From Bacteroidota bacterium (GTDB lineage Bacteria > Bacteroidota > Bacteroidia > AKYH767-A > OLB10): 64,000 nt of DNA. The stretch lies in contig JAHEMF010000009.1 of NCBI GenBank assembly GCA_024643795.1, positions 15,955 through 79,954 on the forward strand, written 5' to 3'. Shown here in pieces: positions 17,800 through 64,000 of this stretch (the first letter of the stretch is position 1; the number at the start of each line of letters is the position of its first letter). The notes below the pieces were generated by a model. That model had not been told where the DNA came from. It ran no database searches and was given only the letters and a program-made list of their open reading frames with translations. The position numbers and the translations under genes are program-made.

Positions 17800-20700
17800 C
17801 TACTGATGTGTGAGTTTAGAGGAATAGGTCTTTTCTCCGTCCGTGATCTGAATCAAATAAATCCCGCTACTTAAGATCGATTGATCAAATGTAAGTTTAC
17901 ATGCTATGTCATTAGGGTTGAATAGCCGCTTGTAAATAACTTTGCCTGATAGCTCATATACACACACCGTTATTTCTCTGTTGATAAGGTTTCCAAATAC
18001 AACATTAAGCTCGTTTTTAAATGGATTTGGAAATACAAAACTCACCAGGTTTTGGTTTGAAATAGTCCTTTCAAGTAATATTGAACCTGAGTATTTATAA
18101 TCCCCATTCTGGTCTATCATCTTCAGTCTGTAATAGTAAGACCTATCACCTTCAACCATGTCAACATATTGATAATTATTGGGTTGTGAGCTAAATCCGG
18201 CGGCCTTTACCGCAGCTATCTTTGTATAATCAACCCCGTTGAGTGACCTTTGAAGCTCAAAACCTGAACTATTCACTTCCGTTAAAGTTAGCCATTCCAA
18301 CACATTTCCTTCATCAATTACTTCGCCAGTAAATGAAACCAGTTGAACAGGTAGCGGACCATTTGTAGCTCCGAGGATCTGGAAGTCGTCTATAGCAACC
18401 CCAACTCCTGTCACAAAGGCGTCACTTTTAAACCGTATCCTAAACCCTACATTTGGGTTGCCGGCTAAAAACGAAATGTCATATTCACATAATGAAAAAG
18501 ATGATCTTGTTCCATTAAAAAATGGTTGATTGAGTGGAAATGCTGTTGTGTTTGTAGTGTTTGCAAAATCATACCAGTTTGCAGAAACTATTCCTAGCGG
18601 TGTCCATAATTCTCCTTTATCAAGAGTGTATTCTACAGTCATTCCGTCCCAACTTATCTCAAAAGAATTTTTTCTGTAAAACCTGAGTGTATAAGTTCCG
18701 GGTTGTGATAAGTTATAGTTAGGTGACCACAGTCGTGTATCAGTATTGTTGGCATAATTTGAGGCGGTTAAACCTGTTACCCATGCCGTAGAACCGGAGC
18801 GTGTTCCATTTTTGCCACCTATTGATGAGTTTCCTTGCTCGAATGATGTGCCATATGTTGTTTCGGACCCAAAGTCAAGTGGATTTGCTTCAAAATTTCC
18901 GCCAGCAGGCAGGTCATAAGGAGTGCCTCGGTTAGGTAAAACATGAATATATGAGGTTTTGGTTCTTGTAAAGGCCCCTGAACCATTTATCTGCAATGTA
19001 ACCGTGTAAAGTCCCGGATTTGTATAAGTATGAGACGGATTTTGGGTGGCTGAAGTATTCCCATCACCAAAGTCCCAATTCCATGCAATTGCCTTGTATG
19101 ATACATCAGAAAATGCGATCAGTTTACCGGTATAAGCAATCTGTTTATCAGATACAAACTCTGCATAGGGGTCGGAGAAGACATCCGAAGAGAATAATCC
19201 GCGACCATGTGTTGCTGCAATAACTAGCTTATCTGAACTCCGGATCTGAAGCATGTCTGTTCTTACATTAGCCATACCGTTATTAGATGGCCCCCAAACT
19301 GTTGCGCCACCCATAAGGTTGTCTGTTGTCCACGTTCCTAACTCTGTTGCTAACATAGCCTGTGTCGCATCATTTGGATTAAACAACGCCCATCGCACAG
19401 GCATATCAGGTAAATTTCCTTCCACGGAAGTCCAGCTTGTGCCACCGTTGGTGGTTTCCCAAACACTGGTTACACCATAGTTAGAATATGTTACTAACAA
19501 GTGGTTATCATTACCGTCTTCAATTGCAATACATGAAACACTACCGGAAGGCATGCTGCCTCCTGTAATATCTGTACCTGATGGAGAGGCTGTGTGCGCA
19601 TTATCAACTCTTACTACACGTCCATTTGAAATCCCAAAGAACACCCTGTTATTTGTATTTGGAGAAACGGACACATGTGTTACACTACCTCCTCCAAATG
19701 CTGCAACATTACGGCTATTTAATGCATTTGACGCTGGTGCATTGGCAAGAATATAGTAGTTGCCTGAGCCATTACGCAAATACATATTGTTGTTAGCGTT
19801 ATCATAATCTGACGGGTTTACAAATGCCCCATTGTTGTTGTTAGTTATCCTCGTAAAAGTGGCTCCGCTATTTGTTGATCTGTAAATGTTACTATACACA
19901 TAAGAAGTGAATTGATACTGCGGCTGATCCTGATCTATGTGTGTGAAACAACCATCGCCACCTGTAACTTCTACAGTTGAGTTGATACCAAGTGTACTAT
20001 ATTTTTGAGAGCCATTATCCTGTGCTCCGGCAATGAATTCAGAAGAGTAGGCCACAGGGCTCATAGAGCAAGCATAATACTGAGTAACATTATAGTTCTG
20101 GCTCACATGGCCAATTGAAGGTATTGATGCGGTTCCATTAGAAGATCGGTATATTCCACCATCGTTACCGAAATATAAAATGCTTGAGTTGCCTGGCTCA
20201 AAGCAGATCTCATGCTGATCGGCATGTACCTCCTGAAACCCAAACCCTCCATACCAATGGCTTATCTGTTGCCACGACCCTGCACCATTGGTAGATTTGA
20301 AAAGGTCAACTCCGCCTGCATAAAGTACATTGGAGTTGTTAGGGTCTACCGCAGCAGTAAGATCGTACCAGGCCTGTCCTCTTGTGAAATCAGCACCTAT
20401 GCCTGGGTCAGCGTCTGTCGGATTGGAGCGGGTAGACCAGTTAGCTCCGCCGTCAGTAGACCTGTAAATTGCTGATATTCCGTAACCGGTTCCCTGTGCA
20501 AGTGCATATATAACATTAGCATTAGATGGCGCACAAGCAAGTTCGATACGGGTAAAGCCAGTAGTTGGAAACCCGTTAGTGCCGTTATTTAGCTTGGTCC
20601 ATGCGCCAGAATTTCCGGTTGCGGATTTATAAATCCCGTCTGTTTGAAACAACCCTAACGCTACGTATATACTATTATCGGCTCCTATTTCAAGGTCGCT

Positions 20701-37442: not shown

Positions 37443-38693
37443 TTACCGAACTATTTGTATCAGTTTCCCTGCCCTTTTCCCCGAGTCGTCTAAAAGGTGT
37501 ACCACATAACTTCCTTTAGAAATTTTTGATGGTATCAGAAAGTGCAGAAAGGCGGTATTATTATATGGCAGCTCATACACTATTCGTCCTGCCAGGTCTG
37601 AGATAATTACAACACCACTTTTATTGCCGGGCTGCAGTACAATATTTAAATAATCGCTGGCAGGGTTAGGGTAAACACGGATCTGTAATGAGTTCAGATC
37701 ATCAGAGATGCCCGACAGTAGTGACTCGTCGAGTCTTGCCAATCCACCCGTTTGCATACCAACCCATATAACACCTGCTGAATCTGATCTTATACATTGC
37801 ACAAAATTATCGGGCATCAAGGAGTTTTGAGTGTTATAAACAATAAAATTCAACCCTGACTTTTTAACCAACCCTGAATCTAGTGTGCCAGTCCAGATAC
37901 TACCATTACTTCCTGCCGTAATGCTTGTTGTGCTGTTTGATGGAATAGACGATGACAAAGTATTATATGTTAAGAAAGATACTCCTCCTAAGTGTGCTGA
38001 TATTCCCGATGCAGCGGTAGAGATCCATAGAATGTTTTGATCATCTCTTACAAGACCTAATAATGAATTATCAGGCAATGAAGAATTTGCCAACGTATAT
38101 TGAGACCAGTTAGAGCCATTTTTAAAACTAATTCCACCGTTTATGGTGCCTACCGTCAATATGTTTGTTATGGTGTCTACATTCAGCGAAGCTATGTTAC
38201 TGGAGCCGATAAGAGAATTTGATGCATCATAAAGAGTCCACACACCTGCGCTGTCAAGGCTAGCCAGGCCTCCGATAGTGCCTATCCAAACAGTTTTAGC
38301 CGTATCGACAGCCAGAGATTTTACATAATTATCAGGTAATAATGAATTGGATGTATTAAATACTGTCCAGGTAACTCCATCATACTTTGCCACTCCTCCA
38401 TTAAAAGTACCTACCCAAAGATTACCGGAATGATCACTAACCAATGCGCGTACTGAATTGTCAGGTATGCCAGAATTAAAAGTTTGGTAAACCACCCAGG
38501 CTTGGTCATCATATGACGCAAGCCCAAAGTCGGTACCGATCCATTTAACATTGTTTTCATCGATCAAAATTGCTCGCACAGAATTTTCAGGTAAAGGCGA
38601 GTTGATGTTATTGAAAATGGTCCATGCATTTTGAGCAATTGCCGGGCTCATAAACAAAACAAGAACAAAAAGATAGATGATTTTTTGCCTCAT
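37443..38693 (-). CDS. Two-component-regulator-propeller (Reg_prop) repeat protein with T9SS type-A CTD
   Basis: Repeats of the W.GT..GG.A.Y type. Signal peptide MRQKIIYLFVLVLFMSPAIAQ. C-terminus VYPNPASDYLNIVL...GSYVVHL. The track start at 38732 is a TTG. Confidence 0.7.
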   Translation of the reverse strand: MRQKIIYLFVLVLFMSPAIAQNAWTIFNNINSPLPENSVRAILIDENNVKWIGTDFGLASYDDQAWVVYQTFNSGIPDNSVRALVSDHSGNLWVGTFNGGVAKYDGVTWTVFNTSNSLLPDNYVKSLAVDTAKTVWIGTIGGLASLDSAGVWTLYDASNSLIGSSNIASLNVDTITNILTVGTINGGISFKNGSNWSQYTLANSSLPDNSLLGLVRDDQNILWISTAASGISAHLGGVSFLTYNTLSSSIPSNSTTSITAGSNGSIWTGTLDSGLVKKSGLNFIVYNTQNSLMPDNFVQCIRSDSAGVIWVGMQTGGLARLDESLLSGISDDLNSLQIRVYPNPASDYLNIVLQPGNKSGVVIISDLAGRIVYELPYNNTAFLHFLIPSKISKGSYVVHLLDDSGKRAGKLIQIVR

Positions 38694-38760: not shown

Positions 38761-41277
38761 TCACTTAAGGATCAAAGGAGCGTTGATAGAAGTTTTTCCG
38801 TTATGGATCCTTATAATATAATGTCCCCTGGCCAGTTCTTTTGTATCGAGCATAAGGTGATTGGCTGTGCTGTTGGCAGGTAATATGACTTTTTCGTGCA
38901 ATTGACCCAACAGGTCAAGCACCTCAATATTAACTACTTCATTTTCGTTCCACAGAAAATCAACTTCACAGGCATCTGTTGCTGGATTGGGATACACATT
39001 AATTTTCAGAGCATCATCAAATACAAATGCCTCCCTGCAGGAAATATCTACAAAGTATGAGTTTGACCCTCTGGCACATCCGTTGCTACTTGTTACTACA
39101 ACCTTATATTTTCCGGGATCATATGCTACATAATCAAGTCCTGTCTCACCCGGAATATCATTTGCATATTTTTTCCATTGGTAGGTAAGCCCGCTTCCCG
39201 AGTTTGCGGTGAATGTAACACTGTCTCCTACACAAATACTGGTTGGGCCATTTGCAGATATAATGGCGCTTGGAAGTGGCAGCACATTAACGGCAATTTT
39301 ATTTGAAGTTCTGGAACAACCAAATGGATCTGTGACAATGCAACGATATTTGCCATTGCCATATGCAAGATAACTTGCATTAGAAGCGCCATTAATAATA
39401 TTACCATATTTTTTCCATTGAAAATCGGTGCCAGTATCGGTGTTAACGCTCAATGTTACGTTATCTCCTTTGCAAATTGTAACCGGGCCGTTTGCACTAA
39501 CAGATGCTTTTGGAAGTTTATGAACATTTAAAGTTGCAGGAGTTCGGCTGCTGACACAAACTTGTCCTGACACCCCAATCTCCCAATCGTAAAAGAAATA
39601 ATAGAAATCTGTTCCGGCAGTTGAATTATGTATGGACAAATAGCCGGGAATTGTATAAGGATAATTTACACCACTATTGTTCCTATACAATGCAAATGTA
39701 TCAGCTCGAGTAATGGCATAGTTGGTTCCTGGCGAAAGGTACCAGTCAAGATTTACACGGCTTTCGCCGGATGGTACATTTACGGTAAGTGAGTCGGCAA
39801 TGACTCCTCCCGAATTGCGCAGCTCAACAGTCATGTCGCCTGCAGTTTGAGCAAATATTTTAACAGACTTTAATGTAAAGCCCGAAAGCACATCAAAAAT
39901 CAGACTTTGGCTGCTTGCAAAAAATGAACCAACGCCAATGCTATTATCAACAGGAAGACATTTGTTGATAAAAGGAGGGATGCTGTCAGTTACTTCAGCA
40001 TAGTAAGTAGTACTTGTATTCAAAAGAGGTGTTATTAGATCATTTCCTGTTGCGATCGGGCTACCTCCTGTAGCTATATCGTACCATTTAATTGATCCAC
40101 TCCCGCTAGCATGAAGTGTTCCAATGCCTTCAACACATACATGATCATCAGTGGTAATTGGCGCAGCACCAACCTCAGTAACCTGGAATGGTTGCGAAAT
40201 ACTGGAACCGCAGGCTGATGTAACAGATACTGTATACGTTCCCTGAGTGCTAACATTAATATTTTGTGTTGTTTCTCCTGTAGACCATTGGTATGAATAA
40301 TTGGGGCCATTTGGTGTTTCCAGGGTCATGCTGGTGCCAGAACAAAGAGATGAGATTCCGGATAGAGAACTAATATTTGCAGGAGGTGCACTTTCCTGCA
40401 GAGTGAGCGTATATGGTACGGCAATCACATTGTTGTTTTCATTTTCTTCTAAAAAATAATTGTGAGGGTCCAGCTCAACAACTATATAATAATCACCATT
40501 ACAAGTTCCGGGTGGAATGTCAATATACATGCCGGTAAGGCCCTGATAATAAATATCGGTGAACCCTGATGAGATTCCTTGTACTACCTGAGAACAGGAG
40601 TAAGCTCCACCCCCAAGCCCATAGTTTGGGAAACTGGAATTTGTAAGCACATTACCTAAGGAATCAACACAATGGCCGTTGTATCCCGAACATGTTCCAT
40701 AGTCCATAAGGCAGAATGCAAGTTTAGCGCCATTGCCAACAATTGGCCATGTAAGAGGATCAGGATTACTGGTTGCAGTGCGAAGGCTGAAGATGCCCCA
40801 ATCGTCAACGTGCATATGACCGTGAGAAGGATGATATGTCATGGAGCCTGCAGCTCTTTCGTAATATGACATAGCATTACCATTTTTATGGTAAACTCTC
40901 TGAACCAGGAGCTGTGTGGGCGGAAGCCCGGTGTTAGGACACGTAGCAGGAGCGGTCCCTGTTATGGTATCGGTTCCGCATATGTATTGTGTGGTTGTTC
41001 TCACTTCCAGCGGACCATGCCCAATGTTAGGTGTTGAAACAGAAATTCTGAGCTGACCATCATTCGCCCCATTTCCCGATTGGGAATATTCAATAACGCC
41101 GGCACTGCCATTTACCAGCAATGGCGGGCGGGCGGCAATGATATCTGGCAGAAGATCACAATCTGTGGTTGATGAAGACTCACAAACACACGAAGTGCCA
41201 TTTGATGTGGTACACTGAGCGGAAGCCATGTATGAGGTAACAGGCAACAGCAATCCCAGCAAGAGAAGTTTTTTCAT
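38761..41277 (-). CDS. Secreted lysyl-oxidase-like (LOX catalytic domain) protein with Cys-rich N-terminus, Ig-like repeats and T9SS type-A CTD
   Basis: Signal peptide MKKLLLLGLLLPVTSYMASAQ. The segment RVYHKNGN...YHPSHGHMHVDDWGIFSL...GAKLAFCLMDYGTC...QGISSGFTDIYYQGLTGMYIDIPPGTCNGDYYIVVELDP...ENENNNV lines up with the human LOX domain RVKNQG...[21 protein letters not shown]...GHKASFCLEDTSC...[38 protein letters not shown]...ESDYTNNV. Three Ig-like repeats follow. The CTD is VYPNPATDACEVDF...GHYIIRI. The track start at 41349 is a TTG. Confidence 0.75.
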   Translation of the reverse strand: MKKLLLLGLLLPVTSYMASAQCTTSNGTSCVCESSSTTDCDLLPDIIAARPPLLVNGSAGVIEYSQSGNGANDGQLRISVSTPNIGHGPLEVRTTTQYICGTDTITGTAPATCPNTGLPPTQLLVQRVYHKNGNAMSYYERAAGSMTYHPSHGHMHVDDWGIFSLRTATSNPDPLTWPIVGNGAKLAFCLMDYGTCSGYNGHCVDSLGNVLTNSSFPNYGLGGGAYSCSQVVQGISSGFTDIYYQGLTGMYIDIPPGTCNGDYYIVVELDPHNYFLEENENNNVIAVPYTLTLQESAPPANISSLSGISSLCSGTSMTLETPNGPNYSYQWSTGETTQNINVSTQGTYTVSVTSACGSSISQPFQVTEVGAAPITTDDHVCVEGIGTLHASGSGSIKWYDIATGGSPIATGNDLITPLLNTSTTYYAEVTDSIPPFINKCLPVDNSIGVGSFFASSQSLIFDVLSGFTLKSVKIFAQTAGDMTVELRNSGGVIADSLTVNVPSGESRVNLDWYLSPGTNYAITRADTFALYRNNSGVNYPYTIPGYLSIHNSTAGTDFYYFFYDWEIGVSGQVCVSSRTPATLNVHKLPKASVSANGPVTICKGDNVTLSVNTDTGTDFQWKKYGNIINGASNASYLAYGNGKYRCIVTDPFGCSRTSNKIAVNVLPLPSAIISANGPTSICVGDSVTFTANSGSGLTYQWKKYANDIPGETGLDYVAYDPGKYKVVVTSSNGCARGSNSYFVDISCREAFVFDDALKINVYPNPATDACEVDFLWNENEVVNIEVLDLLGQLHEKVILPANSTANHLMLDTKELARGHYIIRIHNGKTSINAPLILK

Positions 41278-56940: not shown

Positions 56941-57184
56941 AATTCCGCCACAGACCGCTTTTCATTACTTTGACCTGACACTGTGACCCTGGTTACTTAT
57001 ATTTCTCGCATATTATCAGTAAATTAGCACCATTAATTCAGTGTGTGTAAATGTTAATTTGGGGTGTTTGGTCGATATATGGATTGAACATCCTTTTTTA
57101 ATCTTCGCTCACTTAAACCATCCAGTCAGATGAATGGTTTAAATAGCAGATCAACCTCAAACAAAATCACCTAAAAAAATAACA

Positions 57185-59344
57185 ATGAACCTATTCTTTA
57201 CCCGTGTTTTAGGAATTGCAGCTGTATCCATACTCATGTTGCAAATACCCGGTTATACTCAAACTGCAGCAGAGCTGACCAACGATTGGTGTGTAACACA
57301 TGAAATGTATGAACAGCAACTTAATATTAATCCCGAACTAAGAGCTAAAGTTGAGCAGTGGGAAAAGGAGGGGCAGGAAAACATGAACAAAGTGCTCAAC
57401 AATAAGAGTACGCAGAGCACGCAAAAAGGCAGCTCGGTTGTGAAGATCATTCCTGTAGTGTTTCATGTTATTCACGAAGGCGGTCCAGAAAATATTTCAA
57501 GAGCACAGCTTGAGAATCAGATAGACATATTAAATGCCGATTTCAGAAGATTGAATGCCGACACATCTGCTACACCTGCTGTGTTCAAGCCACTAAGTGG
57601 AGATACTGAAGTTGAATTTAAAATAGCTACTCTCGATCCTAATGGAAATTGTACCGATGGAGTTGTGAGGGTTTACTCCTCGTTAACCAACAGTGCCAGT
57701 CCACGTGATCTTGTCAAAGGCTTGAGTTACTGGCCAAGCAATAAGTATCTCAATATCTGGATCGTTAAATCTATCGCTCCATCATCAGGAACAGTTGGAA
57801 TTGTAGCGGGTTACGCACAGTTTCCCGGAATAGGTTCAACAACAACTGACGGGGTCGTGTTCCGTCATGACTTCACAGGCGCTATTGGCACTGCAAATGC
57901 TTCAAATGCAGGCAGAACAGCAACACATGAAGTAGGTCATTGGCTGGGACTTTATCATATATGGGGTGACGATGGCACTGCGTGTACAGGTTCAGATCAG
58001 GTTTCTGATACACCAAATCAGGCTGGACCAAATCAGACCACCTGCCCCTCATGGCCAAAAATATCTTGTAGTAACGGTCCCAATGGTGAGATGTTCACGA
58101 ACTATATGGACTATACCCGTGGCAACTGCCAAAACATGTTTTCGGTAGGGCAATCAAACAGAATGAATGCAGTTCTCAACGGCTCATTTGGAGGACTTGC
58201 AGCAGGTCGGCCGAATTTGTATACACCTGCAAATCTTATAGCCACCGGTACAGATCCCGGATCAACACCAACACTTTGTGCTCCGGTAGCGGCATTTAAT
58301 TTTCAAAATCAAACTATTTGTGAAGGCACCAGCTTAACTTTTACTGATGGTTCATGGAACGGCACACCTGATACCTGGAGCTGGAGTTTCCCGGGAGGAA
58401 CACCTTCAACTTCTAGCGACCAAAATCCATTTATAACCTATAACACTCCCGGGGTATATGATGTTACTCTTACTGTATCAAACGTCGCAGGTAGTGATAC
58501 TTACACGGCTACCGGAATCATCAAAGTTGAACCTGCTGTTGGCTCTTACGGAATCCCTTTTGCCGAAAGCTTTGAGAACATTGCATTTCCCGGGACAGAT
58601 TGGCAGATCGAGAATGAAAACGGTAATACCTGGGAGCAAAATACACTAGCAGCTAAAACAGGAGCTAATTCTATTTACATAAATAATTATTCGGGAAATC
58701 CCCCGGGAACGGATGTATTCATCACTCCGGCGTATAATCTCTCATGGTCCACAGCTCATTCGCTGACCTTTGAACTTGCATTTGCAATTCGTTCAACATC
58801 GTCAACCGATCAGTTGAAAGTGTATGCTTCTACAACATGCGGACAAATTTGGAACATCAGATATACTAAAGCCGGCGCAAGTCTTGCCACAGCAGGTTTA
58901 GTATCACAACCATTCTTTCCAACAGCGGGTCAGTGGGCTACACAATCAGCCAGCATTTCTTCTTCATCATACAACAACAAGCCGAATGTTCGTTTCAAAT
59001 TTGAATACACTCAAAATTCCGGTAACAATATTTTCATTGATGATATAAATATTGACGGCACAGTTGGCATTGACGAATCATTTGCCGAATCACTAAACCT
59101 GAATGTGTATCCGAACCCGGCACAGTCTGTTGCTACAGTAAGTTTTAATCTGGAAGGATCACACAAGGTATATATCGATGTTATTGATGTGATGGGAAAA
59201 GTGGTTAACAAGATCACGGAAATGGAACTCAATGCAGGAGAATATCAATTTGAACTCCCGGCGAATCTGGCCAACGGATTGTACAGCGTTCGTTTGTTTA
59301 TCGATGGTCGCTCTACCTCTAAGAATATTCTTATTAACCAATAA
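57185..59344 (+). CDS. M43-family (cytophagalysin/pappalysin-like) zinc metalloprotease with PKD-like domain, beta-sandwich domain and T9SS type-A CTD - paralog 1
   Basis: Signal peptide plus propeptide. HEVGHWLGLYHIWGDD (HExxHxxGxxH) and Met-turn NYMDY. C-terminus LNVYPNPAQSVATVSF...GLYSVRLF. Confidence 0.8.
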   Translation: MNLFFTRVLGIAAVSILMLQIPGYTQTAAELTNDWCVTHEMYEQQLNINPELRAKVEQWEKEGQENMNKVLNNKSTQSTQKGSSVVKIIPVVFHVIHEGGPENISRAQLENQIDILNADFRRLNADTSATPAVFKPLSGDTEVEFKIATLDPNGNCTDGVVRVYSSLTNSASPRDLVKGLSYWPSNKYLNIWIVKSIAPSSGTVGIVAGYAQFPGIGSTTTDGVVFRHDFTGAIGTANASNAGRTATHEVGHWLGLYHIWGDDGTACTGSDQVSDTPNQAGPNQTTCPSWPKISCSNGPNGEMFTNYMDYTRGNCQNMFSVGQSNRMNAVLNGSFGGLAAGRPNLYTPANLIATGTDPGSTPTLCAPVAAFNFQNQTICEGTSLTFTDGSWNGTPDTWSWSFPGGTPSTSSDQNPFITYNTPGVYDVTLTVSNVAGSDTYTATGIIKVEPAVGSYGIPFAESFENIAFPGTDWQIENENGNTWEQNTLAAKTGANSIYINNYSGNPPGTDVFITPAYNLSWSTAHSLTFELAFAIRSTSSTDQLKVYASTTCGQIWNIRYTKAGASLATAGLVSQPFFPTAGQWATQSASISSSSYNNKPNVRFKFEYTQNSGNNIFIDDINIDGTVGIDESFAESLNLNVYPNPAQSVATVSFNLEGSHKVYIDVIDVMGKVVNKITEMELNAGEYQFELPANLANGLYSVRLFIDGRSTSKNILINQ

Positions 59345-59431
59345 TTCATAAAAAGCTGTAGTATCAGATCGCTATCAGCTTTATAAATGTTTAAACCTAT
59401 CAGCCTATGTACAGCTGATGAATTTACTTGC

Positions 59432-61564
59432 ATGAAAAAATCTACTTACCTGTTTACAGTTTTTATTTCATTAACAATATTACTGCTTGTAAATAATTCT
59501 CTTGCACAAACTTCAGGCGTAGAAAAGGTTTGCGGATCAACGGAATATTTTGATCAAATGTCAAAGGCCGATCCTGATTTTGTGAGAAACCTGCAGACCC
59601 TTGAAGATGAAACAGCAAAGCATGTAGGCCATTATTTGGAACAAAGAAAACTCAGGGCCGGGCAAAAAAGCAGTGGCTCAGCTATAAAGACTATACCGGT
59701 TGTGTTCCATATTATTCATTACGGGGGTGTTGAGAATATTTCAAAAGCCCAGATCCTTAGTAGTATGGAAGTTTTGAATGAGGGTTTCAGAAAGCAGAAT
59801 GCAGATACAGTAAATATTCCTGGCGTGTTTAAACCGCTCGCTGCCGACAGTGAAATAGAATTCAAACTGGCAACACTTGATCCTAACGGTAACTGTACGG
59901 ATGGCATTGTACGTATTTTCTCTGCATTGACATATGGAGGTAGCAACAACCTTAAGGGTCTTAATTATTGGCCGAGTGACCAATATTTAAATGTATGGGT
60001 AGCCAACTCTCCTATCTCAGCGGGCTCAGGTAATCCTGTTGCCGGATATGCTCAGTTTCCTGGAGGTAATCCACTTACTGATGGCATAGTGATGGCGTAT
60101 GATTATGTAGGAACAGTTGGAAATGTAAATGTGGCAAGCGCAGGACGGACCATAGTTCACGAAGTTGGACACTGGTTAAACCTGCGACATATATGGGGAG
60201 ACGATAGCGGGGCATGTACAGGAACTGATTTTGTTAATGATACACCTAACCAAGGAGATAATAATTTAGGCTCTTGCCCAACATGGCCAAAGATATCTTG
60301 CAACAATGGGCCTAATGGAGAGATGTTCTCAAATTATATGGACTACACAACAGGCACCTGCAGGCTTATGTTCTCTCTCGGACAGTCTGCTCGTATGGAC
60401 GCAGCACTGAATTCTTCGGTGAGTGGAAGAGATAACTTGTGGTCCGCATCTAATTTGATTGCTACAGGTACTGATCCCGGAGCAATCAGTTCATTGTGTG
60501 CGCCTGTTGCTGCTTTTAATGACCAAAGTCAACTAGTATGTGAAGGAGCCACACTTATTTTCAAAGATGGCTCATGGAATGGTGATGTAGCATCCTGGTC
60601 ATGGAGTTTTCCGGGGGGAACACCTGCAACTTCTACAGACTCTATTGTTTCTGTGACATATAACACTGCCGGTGTATACGACGTTACACTCACCGCAACA
60701 AATGCATCAGGATCTGATACATATACCGCTAATGGAATCATTACGGTTGTACCTGCCATAGGACAAAATGGGATTCCATATTCTGAGAGTTTTGAAAACA
60801 TAACTTTTCCCGGATCAGAATGGACCATAGAAAATGAATTTGGTAATACCTGGGAACAGAACACACTGGCAGCGAAGAGCGGAAGCAACTCTGTTTACAT
60901 CAACAACTTTTCCGGAAACCCTCCGGGTACAGATGTCTTCATCACCCCATCTTACAATTTATCCTGGTCAACATCGCACTCCATGACGTTTGAGCTGGCA
61001 TTCGCAATTCGTTCAACATCTTCAACCGACCAGTTAAGGGTTTATGCATCTACAACCTGTGGACAGATTTGGAATATAAGATATACAAAAGCCGGGCAAA
61101 ATCTGGCTACAGCCGGACTGGTTTCTCAGGCATTCTTCCCGGGTTCAAATGACTGGGCTACCCAATCAGTGAGTATCTCATCATCATCTTATAATAACAA
61201 ACCCAATGTCCGTTTCAAATTTGAATACACTCAGAATTCAGGGAACAATATCTTTATTGATGATATTAACATCAACGGGACTGTGGGAATTGATGAAGCA
61301 TTTGCTGAATCATTGGATATGAATGTATATCCAAATCCTGCACAAGCGGTTGCAACTGTCAGTTTCAATCTCGAAAGCTCCCATAAAGTATATATAGATG
61401 TTGTGGATGTGATGGGAAGAGTGGTGAATCAGATCACCGAGGTAGAACTTAATGCAGGGGAATATCAATTCGAACTTCCCGGCAACCTTGCTAACGGCTT
61501 GTATAATGTAAGATTATTCATCGATGGCAATTCTGTCTCAAAGAAGATATTGATCAATAATTAA
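59432..61564 (+). CDS. M43-family zinc metalloprotease with T9SS CTD - paralog 2
   Basis: HEVGHWLNLRHIWGDD; NYMDY. The C-terminal 270 aa or so are about 90% identical to paralog 1 by eye. The ATG follows a 15-codon upstream extension in the track. Confidence 0.8.
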   Translation: MKKSTYLFTVFISLTILLLVNNSLAQTSGVEKVCGSTEYFDQMSKADPDFVRNLQTLEDETAKHVGHYLEQRKLRAGQKSSGSAIKTIPVVFHIIHYGGVENISKAQILSSMEVLNEGFRKQNADTVNIPGVFKPLAADSEIEFKLATLDPNGNCTDGIVRIFSALTYGGSNNLKGLNYWPSDQYLNVWVANSPISAGSGNPVAGYAQFPGGNPLTDGIVMAYDYVGTVGNVNVASAGRTIVHEVGHWLNLRHIWGDDSGACTGTDFVNDTPNQGDNNLGSCPTWPKISCNNGPNGEMFSNYMDYTTGTCRLMFSLGQSARMDAALNSSVSGRDNLWSASNLIATGTDPGAISSLCAPVAAFNDQSQLVCEGATLIFKDGSWNGDVASWSWSFPGGTPATSTDSIVSVTYNTAGVYDVTLTATNASGSDTYTANGIITVVPAIGQNGIPYSESFENITFPGSEWTIENEFGNTWEQNTLAAKSGSNSVYINNFSGNPPGTDVFITPSYNLSWSTSHSMTFELAFAIRSTSSTDQLRVYASTTCGQIWNIRYTKAGQNLATAGLVSQAFFPGSNDWATQSVSISSSSYNNKPNVRFKFEYTQNSGNNIFIDDININGTVGIDEAFAESLDMNVYPNPAQAVATVSFNLESSHKVYIDVVDVMGRVVNQITEVELNAGEYQFELPGNLANGLYNVRLFIDGNSVSKKILINN

Positions 61565-61616
61565 TATCCGGATTTAAGGTGCCTAAATCTTTGATTCGGA
61601 ATAAATAGCAAGTTGT

Positions 61617-63743
61617 ATGAGAATAAGTCTACGAGCAATTGTTGAAGTAATTTTTGTTTCAACGCTGATGATGCCCGGTCGTTTGTTTGCACAGGAAATA
61701 TTGCCATGCGGAACATCTGAGAACCACGCAATACTTTTACAGTCCGACCCTCAATTCAGTGAAAATCAGAAGCAGCTTGAAGAATTTACCAACGCACATG
61801 TTGAACAATATTTAACAGACCGTTTACAAAGAGGGTCTCAAAAAGGAAGTGCATCGGTAGTAAAAACTATTCCTGTGGTATTTCATATCATCCATTACGG
61901 AGGGCTTGAAAATATTTCAAAAGCACAGGTACAAAGTGCAATAGATGTGTTAAATGAGGATTTCAGACGCCTCAACTCAGATACGGCGAATACACCCCCG
62001 GCATTTAAGGCAATTGGAGCGGATACTGAGATAGAATTCAAGCTCGCAACACTTGATCCAAATGGTAATTGTACCGATGGAATAGTAAGGGTTTATTCGG
62101 CTTTAACTTATGCAGGCAACAATACAGTTAAACCTCTCAGCTATTGGCCGAATGATATGTACCTGAATGTTTGGGTTGTTGATCAGGCATATCCGTCACC
62201 TAATGATCCAAGAGTTGGATACTCACAATTTCCGGGAGGTAATCCACTTACCGATGGAATAGTAATGTCACACGATTATACTGGAAGAATCGGAACGGCG
62301 GCAAATGGCGAACTGGGCAGATGGATATGCCATGAGGCCGGTCACTCATTCAACTTAAGACATATCTGGGGAGATGCAAATTGTGGTAACGACTTTGTTT
62401 CTGACACTCCTCCGGCAGAAGGATCTCACAGCGGATGCGGCGCTTACCCGTACCATGTGAACTTGTGTGGCGCAGGCAGCAGCCCTGATGGAGAGATGAA
62501 TACCAATTATATGGACTATTCATCAGGAGGATGCCTGAATATCTTTACACTGGGCCAGTCAGCCCGCATGGATGCTGCGTTAAATTCTACTATCAGCGGA
62601 AGGGATAACTTGTGGAGCCCATCAAATCTCACTGCTACCGGAACAGCACCGGGAACACCTCCTTCTGTTTGTGCACCTGTTGCAGCTTTCGCGGATAAAA
62701 ACAGAATTGTTTGCGAGGGAAGTGTGGTTCAGTTTTTTGACGGCTCATACAATTCAGATACTATAAGCTACAGCTGGAGTTTCCCGGGTGGAACACCGGC
62801 AACATCCACAGACAAGGATCCGGTAATTACCTATAATACTACCGGTACTTATGATGTAATTTTAACAGTTTCAAATGCTTTTGGAAACGACACTTATACC
62901 GCAACAGGTATCATTGAGGTTTTGCCCGCAAACGGCCAATACAATGTTCCTTATTGGGAAAGTTTTGAGAATATCACCTTCCCGGGCACAGAATGGCTGA
63001 TTGAAAATGATGGAGGTAACACATGGGAGCAAACCAGTTTGTCGGCCAGAACAGGAACCAATTCTATTTATATAAATAATTACAGTGGAAACCCTCCGGG
63101 GCAAGATGTGTTTATTACACCCACTTACGACCTGTCAGGAACATCTCAAAATTATTTGACTTTTGAACTGGCTTTTGCCATCAGGACCACAGCATCAACA
63201 GACCAATTAAGAGTGTTTGCTTCCACAACGTGCGGCCAATTATGGAATATAAGATATAACAAATCAGGGGCATCACTTTCTACTGCAGGAATCATTTCAT
63301 CACCATTTTTCCCAAATGGGAATCAATGGGCATATCAATCGGTTAATATTGCTTCGTCATCGTATAACAATAAACCCAATGTGAGATTCAAGTTTGAATA
63401 CACACAGCAGTCGGGCAATAATATTTTTATCGATGACATTAATTTGCATAGCCCTGTGGGGATTGAAGATGTTGGTTCAAACGTGAAGGATCTTGAGGTT
63501 TACCCTAATCCCGTACAAACTTTTGCGACTGTAGAGTTTACACTTGATGAGCCTTGTCAGGTATATATTGATGTTGTGGATGTAATGGGGAAAGTAGTTA
63601 ATAAGATTTCAGAAACGCGATTGGATGCAGGGGAATATCAATTTGAATTACCAATGGAACTTCCTGCAGGATTATATAATGTGAGAATATTTACAGACGG
63701 CAAATCTGTATCTAAGAAGATAATTGTAACAGATAATAATTAA
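61617..63743 (+). CDS. M43-family zinc metalloprotease with T9SS CTD - paralog 3 (most diverged)
   Basis: HEAGHSFNLRHIWGD; NYMDY. The Cys pattern around the active site differs (GDANCGNDF...GCGAYPYHVNLCGAG). CTD LEVYPNPVQTFATVEF. Confidence 0.8.
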   Translation: MRISLRAIVEVIFVSTLMMPGRLFAQEILPCGTSENHAILLQSDPQFSENQKQLEEFTNAHVEQYLTDRLQRGSQKGSASVVKTIPVVFHIIHYGGLENISKAQVQSAIDVLNEDFRRLNSDTANTPPAFKAIGADTEIEFKLATLDPNGNCTDGIVRVYSALTYAGNNTVKPLSYWPNDMYLNVWVVDQAYPSPNDPRVGYSQFPGGNPLTDGIVMSHDYTGRIGTAANGELGRWICHEAGHSFNLRHIWGDANCGNDFVSDTPPAEGSHSGCGAYPYHVNLCGAGSSPDGEMNTNYMDYSSGGCLNIFTLGQSARMDAALNSTISGRDNLWSPSNLTATGTAPGTPPSVCAPVAAFADKNRIVCEGSVVQFFDGSYNSDTISYSWSFPGGTPATSTDKDPVITYNTTGTYDVILTVSNAFGNDTYTATGIIEVLPANGQYNVPYWESFENITFPGTEWLIENDGGNTWEQTSLSARTGTNSIYINNYSGNPPGQDVFITPTYDLSGTSQNYLTFELAFAIRTTASTDQLRVFASTTCGQLWNIRYNKSGASLSTAGIISSPFFPNGNQWAYQSVNIASSSYNNKPNVRFKFEYTQQSGNNIFIDDINLHSPVGIEDVGSNVKDLEVYPNPVQTFATVEFTLDEPCQVYIDVVDVMGKVVNKISETRLDAGEYQFELPMELPAGLYNVRIFTDGKSVSKKIIVTDNN

Positions 63744-63749
63744 ACCTTG

Positions 63750-64000
63750 ATGAAAATTTTTAAAATAATTGTAATCCTAGTTTTAACTTCATTCAGCTCG
63801 CTGTTTGCCCAGTCAGGTTATCGGGTTTGTGACACCGAGAATATGGTTAAAAAAGCGTTGCAACAAGATCCAAACTATGCAATTGAAAGAGCAAAGTTGA
63901 ATCAATTCACTTCAGCATACGAAGCAACAAATAGCGCACTTAAAAGCAGCAAAGGAGTGCCATTGTATACTATTCCTGTTGTAGTGCATGTAATACATAA
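63750..64000 (+). CDS. M43-family zinc metalloprotease - paralog 4, N-terminal fragment (3' end beyond window)
   Basis: Signal peptide MKIFKIIVILVLTSFSSLFAQ. The propeptide is collinear with paralogs 1-3, including the conserved IPVVVHVIH. Confidence 0.7.
   Translation, partial: MKIFKIIVILVLTSFSSLFAQSGYRVCDTENMVKKALQQDPNYAIERAKLNQFTSAYEATNSALKSSKGVPLYTIPVVVHVIH

Follow-up and report, generated by a model that had tools for sequence, protein, structure and literature searches.

Separate catalytic lineages and probably exchanged tails in a tandem array of predicted secreted M43B proteases from a Bacteroidota bacterium

Four tandem genes for M43B proteases with predicted export

We analysed a 64,000-nucleotide stretch of DNA from a Bacteroidota bacterium (contig JAHEMF010000009.1, positions 15,955 to 79,954 of the forward strand; hereafter the window), the 3′ end of which carries a tandem array of four paralogous genes, p1 to p4, for metalloproteases of family M43 that are predicted to be exported through a type IX secretion system (T9SS). 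The array is a mosaic in which the catalytic domains belong to old, separate lineages and the C-terminal parts of p1 and p2 are much more alike, probably through exchange between neighbouring copies.

Three of the genes, p1, p2 and p3, are complete open reading frames (ORFs) arranged head to tail on the same strand, and p4 exits the window after 83 codons. The protein database supplied the full p4 protein (P0095), and an independent Logan contig (L001) supplied some of the p4 DNA beyond the window. The four genes are listed below, where L015b, L017b and L017c are genes of relatives.

p1, 57185-59344, + strand: complete ORF of 719 residues, the array copy nearest to the single 'A' gene of relatives
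p2, 59387-61564, + strand: 725 residues as called, with a catalytic domain orthologous to that of L017b and a p1-like tail
p3, 61617-63743, + strand: 708 residues, with a catalytic lineage common to L015b, L017c and P0006
p4, 63750-64000, + strand: first 83 codons of the 'B'-type paralogue, which is present in all related two-gene arrays; 688 residues at full length (P0095)

As called, the spacers p1-p2, p2-p3 and p3-p4 are 42, 52 and 6 nucleotides long. A preliminary description of this DNA had reported four head-to-tail M43 paralogues with these spacers as T9SS cargo, and the ORFs, Pfam and TIGR04183 all agree with it. The called start of p2 (59387-59431) adds 15 residues, MFKPISLCTADEFTC, which the homologues do not have. 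Because these lack the extension and a signal peptide of the family type fits better without it, the true start of p2 is probably Met16, at the ATG at 59432 (MKKST...), which would give a protein of 710 residues and a p1-p2 spacer of 87 nucleotides.

All four proteins share a common plan of signal peptide, pro-segment, M43B catalytic domain, PKD domain, β-sandwich and T9SS C-terminal domain (CTD). The Pfam families Peptidase_M43, PKD and Por_Secre_tail exceed their curated cut-offs in p1-p3 (PF05572 at 40-72 bits with a cut-off of 23, PF18962 at 38.7-39.9 bits with a cut-off of 27) and TIGR04183 matches p1-p4 at 31.6-43.9 bits (cut-off 23). The N-termini, as read from the sequences, are hydrophobic and end in AQ or TQ, resembling Sec signals. 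The four proteins are thus predicted from their sequences to be T9SS type A cargo. In p1 the domains are placed as follows (TM, Foldseek TM-score).

p1 catalytic domain, 57437-58189, + strand: residues 85-335; Pfam, TM 0.91 to ulilysin
p1 PKD domain, 58280-58516, + strand: residues 366-444; Pfam PKD_4, E 4e-12
p1 jelly-roll β-sandwich, 58547-59080, + strand: residues ~455-632; MAM-like and gingipain cleaved-adhesin-like
p1 T9SS type A sorting domain, 59105-59338, + strand: residues 641-718; PF18962 and TIGR04183 above cut-off

The catalytic domain matches ulilysin with an E value of 1e-73 (47-49% identity) and mirolysin with one of 5e-66. An AF2 (AlphaFold2) model of p1, with a pLDDT (predicted local distance difference test) score of 85.5, superposes on solved M43B members with TM-scores of 0.86-0.91, those for ulilysin being 0.89-0.91. 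Pfam MAM matches the β-sandwich below threshold (E 8e-4 to 3e-3; 0.003 in p1) and Foldseek, given this part of the p1 model, returns MAM modules and the K3 adhesin of the gingipain Kgp (3m1h; TM 0.66). The array is predicted to encode four T9SS-exported zinc protease zymogens of the M43B type ('unicellular pappalysins', similar to ulilysin and mirolysin).

Uneven divergence along the paralogues

At the amino-acid level the identity between p1 and p2 is 61% for the catalytic domain, 66% for the PKD domain, 86% for the β-sandwich and 84% for the CTD. The mosaic divergence that the preliminary description had proposed for this pair is therefore borne out, by MaxChi and a run test as well as by these identities, though its estimate of about 90% identity in the tail was too high: over the last ~250 residues, which are markedly more alike, the identity is ~85% (85-86%) in amino acids and 74-75% in nucleotides. 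In p3 the identity to p1 and p2 is 56-61% in the catalytic domain, 69-72% in the β-sandwich and 60-62% in the CTD, and the CTD of p4 is only 27-31% identical to those of p1 and p2. A run test of the GENECONV type, applied within the window, finds the matches between p1 and p2 clustered C-terminally (p=0.001) and those between p2 and p3 clustered N-terminally (p=0.001-0.003). Uniform divergence along the genes, named beforehand as the finding that would speak for simple duplication, is rejected by both MaxChi and the run test.

Synonymous sites carry no timing information here. The proportion of synonymous differences (pS) is 0.65-0.85 in all comparisons between window paralogues, which is saturated and useless as a clock, and the identity of p1 and p2 at four-fold degenerate sites is 36% in both halves of the gene. 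The synonymous rate (dS) is saturated in every comparison and hence neither its ratio to the non-synonymous rate (dN/dS) nor a sliding dS could be used.

Copy number and growth of the array

The comparison of copy number covered 99 loci. A single gene of this kind occurs in 71 of them and a pair in 24, and the 4 with three or more are all from the window organism or its relatives. In the genome scan seven loci hold a tandem pair, consisting of an A gene nearest to p1 and a B gene nearest to p4. These seven loci and L016 carry A and B with the same flanking genes, L016, a metagenome contig, being syntenic with the window (in the order DUF5686, DXS, a Cys/Met pyridoxal-phosphate (PLP) enzyme gene, TrkA, A, B). 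Among the other informative metagenome contigs, L015 and L017 represent one other lineage and have a partial gene, a p2 orthologue, a p3 orthologue, B and AHSA1, and L019 has a partial gene and a p3-type gene, followed by B. In eight loci B has AHSA1 behind it, and several have the Cys/Met gene ahead of A; with these flanks kept, the array would have grown in place from an A-B pair. The ends of the L019 contig (3-30 and 3420-3457) translate to MCIRDRYL and CLLYTSPSPRDI and resemble leftovers derived from adapters or a transposase.

Closer relatives were sought, with a maximum identity of 58% in the genome scan and 56% in a profile scan, and a first metagenome scan with p3 gave no match. The sole strain-level variation found is a variant of p1 that differs at one residue.

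Heads group by orthologue and tails by genome

In neighbour-joining trees of the catalytic domain, p1 is placed with the single-copy A genes, to which it is 71-73% identical, as against 56-61% among the window paralogues. The gene p2 groups with L017b (88% identity, bootstrap 100) and p3 with L015b and L017c (83-84% identity, bootstrap 100 for p3 with L015b), while p1 and p2 are never joined (bootstrap 0). The lineages of p2 and p3 join one another with 80% bootstrap and the two catalytic domains are 61% identical, just as those of p1 and p2 are, so the earlier statement that p3 is uniformly more distant does not hold. For the quartet p2, p3, L017b and L015b, the informative sites of the catalytic domain divide 49:0:0 in favour of grouping by orthologue.

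In the tails the grouping is by genome. The same type of count over the PKD domain, β-sandwich and CTD is 17:1:5 for grouping by genome, and a tree of the β-sandwich and CTD joins p1 with p2 (bootstrap 99) and L017b with L015b (100), leaving p2 with L017b at 0. A tail quartet of p1 and p2 with L017a and L017b favours the within-genome pairs by 19:1:2 in amino acids and by 32:1:2 in codon positions 1 and 2.

The change of partner can be located. With MaxChi, comparing against the p2 orthologue, the switch falls at p2 residues 473-481 (nucleotides ~60803-60829, equivalent to p1 residues 467-475; permutation p≤0.0005), close to the ~60770 proposed earlier. To the left of it 121 sites match the orthologue only and 18 match p1 only; on the other side the orthologue-only sites number 9 and the p1-only sites 35. 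MaxChi also gives a break at p1 residues 502-507, and its values at supported breakpoints are 72-86. The homogenised tract is delimited accordingly.

Homogenised tract, p1 side, 58583-59344, + strand: 5′ boundary between 58583 and 58705; MaxChi, 99% bootstrap
Homogenised tract, p2 side, 60803-61564, + strand: β-sandwich plus CTD; MaxChi

In L017b the switch lies instead at residues ~332-360, at the junction of the catalytic and PKD domains (MaxChi). Since the breakpoints of p2 and L017b differ, these are separate events with different 5′ ends in two lineages.

Reversed constraint and probable exchange in relatives

Comparison of orthologues gives a proportion of non-synonymous differences (pN) of 0.07-0.10 for the catalytic domain and 0.15-0.29 for the tail. 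Between p1 and p2 pN is 0.24 for the catalytic domain and 0.08-0.10 for the tail, and catalytic domains of paralogues overall give 0.24-0.31. By these values the catalytic lineages separated early and have each been strongly conserved since. The catalytic domain is therefore the best-conserved part between orthologues and the worst-conserved between paralogues, a reversal that could not arise from purifying selection being stronger on the tail.

One relative has neutral-site evidence of a probable recent exchange. In L015, nucleotides 1-255 differ from nucleotides 2184-2438, in the next gene, at 2 positions (99% identity, pS 0.05), and beyond the 255-nucleotide tract the identity falls abruptly to ~78%, near the junction of the β-sandwich and CTD. 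Raised similarity in the C-terminal domains also occurs in other tandem pairs. In L006 (10001-14216) the tails of A and B group with 90% bootstrap, the β-sandwich being 73% and the catalytic domain 53% identical; the M43 pair of L035 (3846-8005) has 68% identity in the CTD versus 43% in the β-sandwich, and that of L038 (5986-10205) has 91% in the CTD versus 76% in the catalytic domain. In ordinary A-B pairs the CTD identity is 20-42%. Recent nucleotide tracts were sought in L006, L035, L038 and L068 and none was found.

Active site, pro-segment and predicted specificity

The elements of the active site and the pro-segment considered here are the following.

p1 zinc motif HEVGHWLGLYH, 57926-57958, + strand
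p2 zinc motif HEVGHWLNLRH, 60146-60178, + strand
p3 zinc motif HEAGHSFNLRH, 62322-62354, + strand
p1 Cys36 codon, 57290-57292, + strand: candidate cysteine-switch residue of the pro-segment

The corresponding motif of p4 is HEAGHWLNLPH. All four copies keep the three zinc histidines and the catalytic glutamate, and all have the NYMDY Met-turn, which aligns with the Met-turn of ulilysin (Met308 in p1, 58106-58108). The preliminary description had given every copy both NYMDY and the motif HExxHxxGxxH; the former is correct, but the canonical glycine is found only in p1 and is replaced by asparagine in p2, p3 and p4, as in ulilysin. In the p3 lineage a tryptophan and a cysteine immediately precede the first zinc histidine (GRWICHEAGHS), and this is conserved in L015b and L017c. 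The repatterning of cysteines in p3 that had been noted amounts to one extra cysteine before HEAGH and one that is shifted by a four-residue insertion, both of them kept in the p3 orthologues.

The pro-segment cysteine at the position of p1 Cys36 is invariant among 68 homologues. The lineages of p2 and p3 alone have it in a Cys-Gly dipeptide, p1 having CV and p4 CD. In mirolysin Cys23 of the pro-segment blocks the zinc (PMC6949598) and, by homology with promirolysin, the cysteine here is likely to be a cysteine switch. In promirolysin Arg21, two positions before the switch cysteine, occupies the S1′ pocket (PMC6949598). The residue at this -2 position differs by lineage, being Asp or Glu in A and p1, Lys in p2, Leu or Met in p3 and Arg in p4. 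The wall of the S1′ pocket varies as well: the equivalent of mirolysin Thr221 is Thr in p1 and p2, Trp in p3 and Ser in p4. That of Thr287 is Thr, Thr, Ser and Ala in p1 to p4, respectively.

At the S1′ aspartate site (Asp289 of mirolysin) there is a glycine in p1 (Gly313, 58121-58123), p2 and p3, and a two-residue deletion in p4. Glycine occupies this site in at least 90% of the 68 homologues, as against aspartate in ulilysin, mirolysin and PAPP-A. Because of this replacement the Bacteroidota subfamily probably lacks the preference for Arg or Lys at P1′ of the characterised pappalysins; by sequence and fold its proteins still belong to M43B of MEROPS. For diversifying selection on the catalytic or propeptide half, which the preliminary description had also suggested, the signs are indirect. 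Among sites that are at least 85% conserved in the A group, 22 carry lineage-fixed replacements in the p2 lineage and 12 in the p3 lineage, including 245-247, immediately ahead of the first zinc histidine, and 316-317, after the Met-turn loop. From the changes lining S1′ and in the pro-segment it is plausible that the paralogues have diverged in specificity. The idea of a charge swap, in which the pro-segment aspartate of p1 would pair with Arg312, was dropped as the Arg, Asn or Thr found at that position is not lineage-specific.

Other features of the window

At 57061-57094, between the TrkA-like gene and p1, there is a terminator-like hairpin with a T-run behind it, and no similar site was seen between the four protease genes, in a scan that overall performed no better than on shuffled sequence. 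The absence of internal terminator-like sites is compatible with co-transcription of the protease genes. Scanning for sigma-70 promoters and terminators gave no more hits than in shuffled sequence and is uninformative for Bacteroidota. An antisense ORF of 119 codons inside p2 (60529-60888, - strand) is unsupported and was taken to be spurious.

With p1 as query, tblastn found further segments resembling the T9SS CTD and a segment resembling the PKD domain and β-sandwich, at 38806-39021, 37452-37745 and 18517-19191, all on the - strand; the window thus has other CTD-bearing ORFs and encodes further T9SS cargo. Between 24001 and 28000 the G+C content dips locally to 0.34-0.38 from ~0.40, with a GC skew of -0.28 at 24-26 kb.

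Origin of the mosaic

We consider it likely that the array was formed by expansion of A in place, together with interlocus exchange restricted to the 3′ parts, either gene conversion or unequal crossover, and that such exchange recurred independently in several lineages. The ancestral state, kept in most relatives, would have been an A-B pair at a conserved chromosomal position, in the order Cys/Met-PLP enzyme gene (with or without the TrkA-like gene), A, B and AHSA1. Duplication of A in place in the window lineage would have produced p1, which stayed A-like, and p2 and p3, all ahead of p4, which would be B. The catalytic heads of p2 and p3 would have diverged early and then stayed separate orthologous lineages under purifying selection, with the 3′ parts being overwritten between neighbouring copies by, we infer, gene conversion of the RecA type or unequal crossover. 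One old event in the window genome would have made the β-sandwich and CTD of p1 and p2 alike from about p2 codon 475. Most economically, the A-type tail of p1 would have overwritten that of p2; p3 and p4 would have escaped, p3 retaining an older, diverged tail. In the sister lineage of L015 and L017 the tract would begin at the catalytic/PKD junction and span three copies. Such tracts may stop where the divergence of the catalytic domains leaves too little homology, or because homogenised heads are selected against.

As judged from the trees, the p1/p2 event is later than the split from the L015/L017 lineage, because the clade of p1 and p2 excludes all of the L015/L017 tails, yet it is ancient, because synonymous sites within the tract are saturated. 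The gene conversion of the 3′ halves put forward in the preliminary description fits the grouping of heads by orthologue and of tails by genome, with the addition that the event is ancient (pS ~0.8). Its picture of a 'protease-specificity diversification cassette' that actively generates diversity does not, the data showing a stable array of long-specialised paralogues.

Several observations weigh against this history. The nucleotide self dot-plot that had been proposed as a check, together with a repeat search over 57000-64000, does recover similarity among the copies, but only at 60-80% identity, with no tract above ~80% and none that is recent. Within the tract the pS of p1 and p2 (0.81-0.83) is not lower than outside it (0.67-0.84), and no breakpoint emerges at third codon positions (p=0.34). 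Since this neutral-site signal is lacking, the case for exchange in the window rests on amino acids and on phylogeny from first and second codon positions. Quartets with distant outgroups are only modestly favourable (6:3:4 and 5:3:3), and strict shared-derived sites relative to a consensus outgroup are few (2 for p1 with p2 and 3 for the sister lineage), a count which is under-powered. The presumed p1 orthologue, L017a, has its catalytic domain missing. The trees were built by neighbour joining under a simple distance correction rather than by maximum likelihood. Finally, the recent tract of L015 sits at the start of a MEGAHIT contig, where an assembly artefact is possible.

It is conceivable, though we think it doubtful, that the shared tail is itself under selection, as a common, co-evolving module for export, anchoring or adhesion that would let the heads and their matching pro-segments specialise in P1′ preference. 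The proteases might, for instance, use the same shuttle or form one surface complex as the gingipains do. If this were true, it would amount to a general modular rule linking M43 arrays, the KLIKK proteases and the gingipains.

The tails may also have become alike by lineage-specific convergence, each being fitted independently to the T9SS shuttle, sortase or surface anchor of the organism. The CTD is a secretion signal that evolves fast between species, and the window has no synonymous-site evidence of physical exchange, both of which suit this idea. However, the CTDs of p3 and p4, at 60% and 27-31% identity to those of p1 and p2, match the same sorting-domain model; the signal extends over a β-sandwich of 180 residues, and in the sister lineage over the PKD domain too; and convergence cannot yield the 99% nucleotide identity and pS of 0.05 of the L015 tract. 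We regard it as improbable.

Ancient duplication with no exchange at all, purifying selection simply acting more strongly on the tail than on the catalytic half, is slightly less credible again. It would explain why saturation of synonymous sites is even along the genes and why all pairs, p1-p3 and p2-p3 among them, are somewhat more alike in the β-sandwich (69-72%) than in the catalytic domain (56-61%). It fails on the orthologues, in which the tails are less conserved than the catalytic domains, on the switch in topology from one segment to the other, which has 99-100% bootstrap either side, and on the CTD identity of only 20-42% in typical A-B pairs.

The same grouping of heads across genomes and tails within genomes is predicted if the tails record the true history, as recent lineage-specific duplications, and the 5′ halves were replaced laterally between species. 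This would need separate transfers of a p2-type and a p3-type head that preserved the order p2-type, p3-type, B, AHSA1 in both lineages. Moreover, the catalytic domains of the orthologues are synonymously saturated (pS 0.78-0.84), so that no recent transfer is visible, and the p1 and p2 tails, far from being young, match the orthologue split in age. Lateral replacement of the heads is accordingly very unlikely.

Least probable of all is that the mosaic genes are chimeras from collapsed or mis-joined repeats in a metagenome contig, since, for all that the source is uncultured, assembly of tandem paralogues is difficult and the L015 tract is at a contig end, the window copies are at most 80% identical in nucleotides and leave nothing for an assembler to collapse, and independent Logan contigs reproduce the array across the breakpoint (L018 with p1 and the 5′ part of p2; L001 with p2 residues 376-725, encoding the same protein, p3 and the 5′ part of p4).

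In-place expansion with exchange of the 3′ parts would give one bacterial family two histories, one of old and stable catalytic lineages and one of tails repeatedly overwritten in each genome. Trees and identities based on whole proteins will mis-assign orthology in families of T9SS cargo. The four enzymes also form a panel for how changes in S1′ and the pro-segment retune specificity of the pappalysin type.

Comparison with known systems

M43 proteases were already known as T9SS cargo from mirolysin and cytophagalysin. Partial conversion in a bacterial family is in itself unsurprising; the present case is a clean and well-documented one and not a new kind of system.

The mosaics produced by interlocus conversion elsewhere (bioRxiv 10.1101/2025.10.29.685298; PMC3728101) likewise combine diverged functional islands with homogenised flanks, and their tracts end at the diverged region. 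The published cases, however, are eukaryotic and usually recent, with reduced dS, whereas the exchange in the window predates synonymous saturation.

Ulilysin of Methanosarcina acetivorans, an M43B protease, is the best match in both sequence and fold, and shares the motif HExxHxxNxxH with p2-p4 and a Met-turn of the NYMDY type. Unlike the proteins of the array it has no PKD domain, β-sandwich or T9SS CTD, and it has the S1′ aspartate (Arg/Lys specificity) in place of the glycine found here.

There are two closest analogues. The gingipains RgpA and Kgp of Porphyromonas gingivalis, with HagA (PMC5266723), are also T9SS cargo in which adhesin modules C-terminal to the catalytic domain have been shared or rearranged among paralogues by recombination and the catalytic domains are distinct, and the cleaved-adhesin fold of Kgp K3 (3m1h) resembles the β-sandwich here (TM 0.66). 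They differ in being cysteine proteases from dispersed loci with repeated adhesin modules, as opposed to metalloproteases with a single jelly-roll in a strictly tandem arrangement.

The other closest analogue is the set of KLIKK proteases of Tannerella forsythia (PMC4404884, PMC6949598), which also form a cluster of T9SS protease genes with differing catalytic domains and a C-terminal part that is shared within the genome. One of them, the M43 protease mirolysin, is directly homologous to the array's catalytic domain, and both have a short pro-segment with a cysteine, which is zinc-blocking in mirolysin. Mirolysin has an S1′ aspartate where there is glycine here, and an aspartate at the glycine position of the zinc motif. 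The KLIKK cluster comprises several catalytic classes and all heads of the array are M43B paralogues; nor is there a potempin-like inhibitor gene upstream of the proteases between the genes here (spacers of 6-87 nucleotides), unlike in the KLIKK cluster. What is shared in the KLIKK proteases is a virtually identical CTD (86-100%), the origin of which was left open by the authors (PMC4404884), and in the array it is the β-sandwich plus the CTD, at ~85% amino-acid identity and of old date. The unexplained identity of the KLIKK CTDs thereby has an environmental counterpart, one where the underlying process can be placed in time and its limits located.

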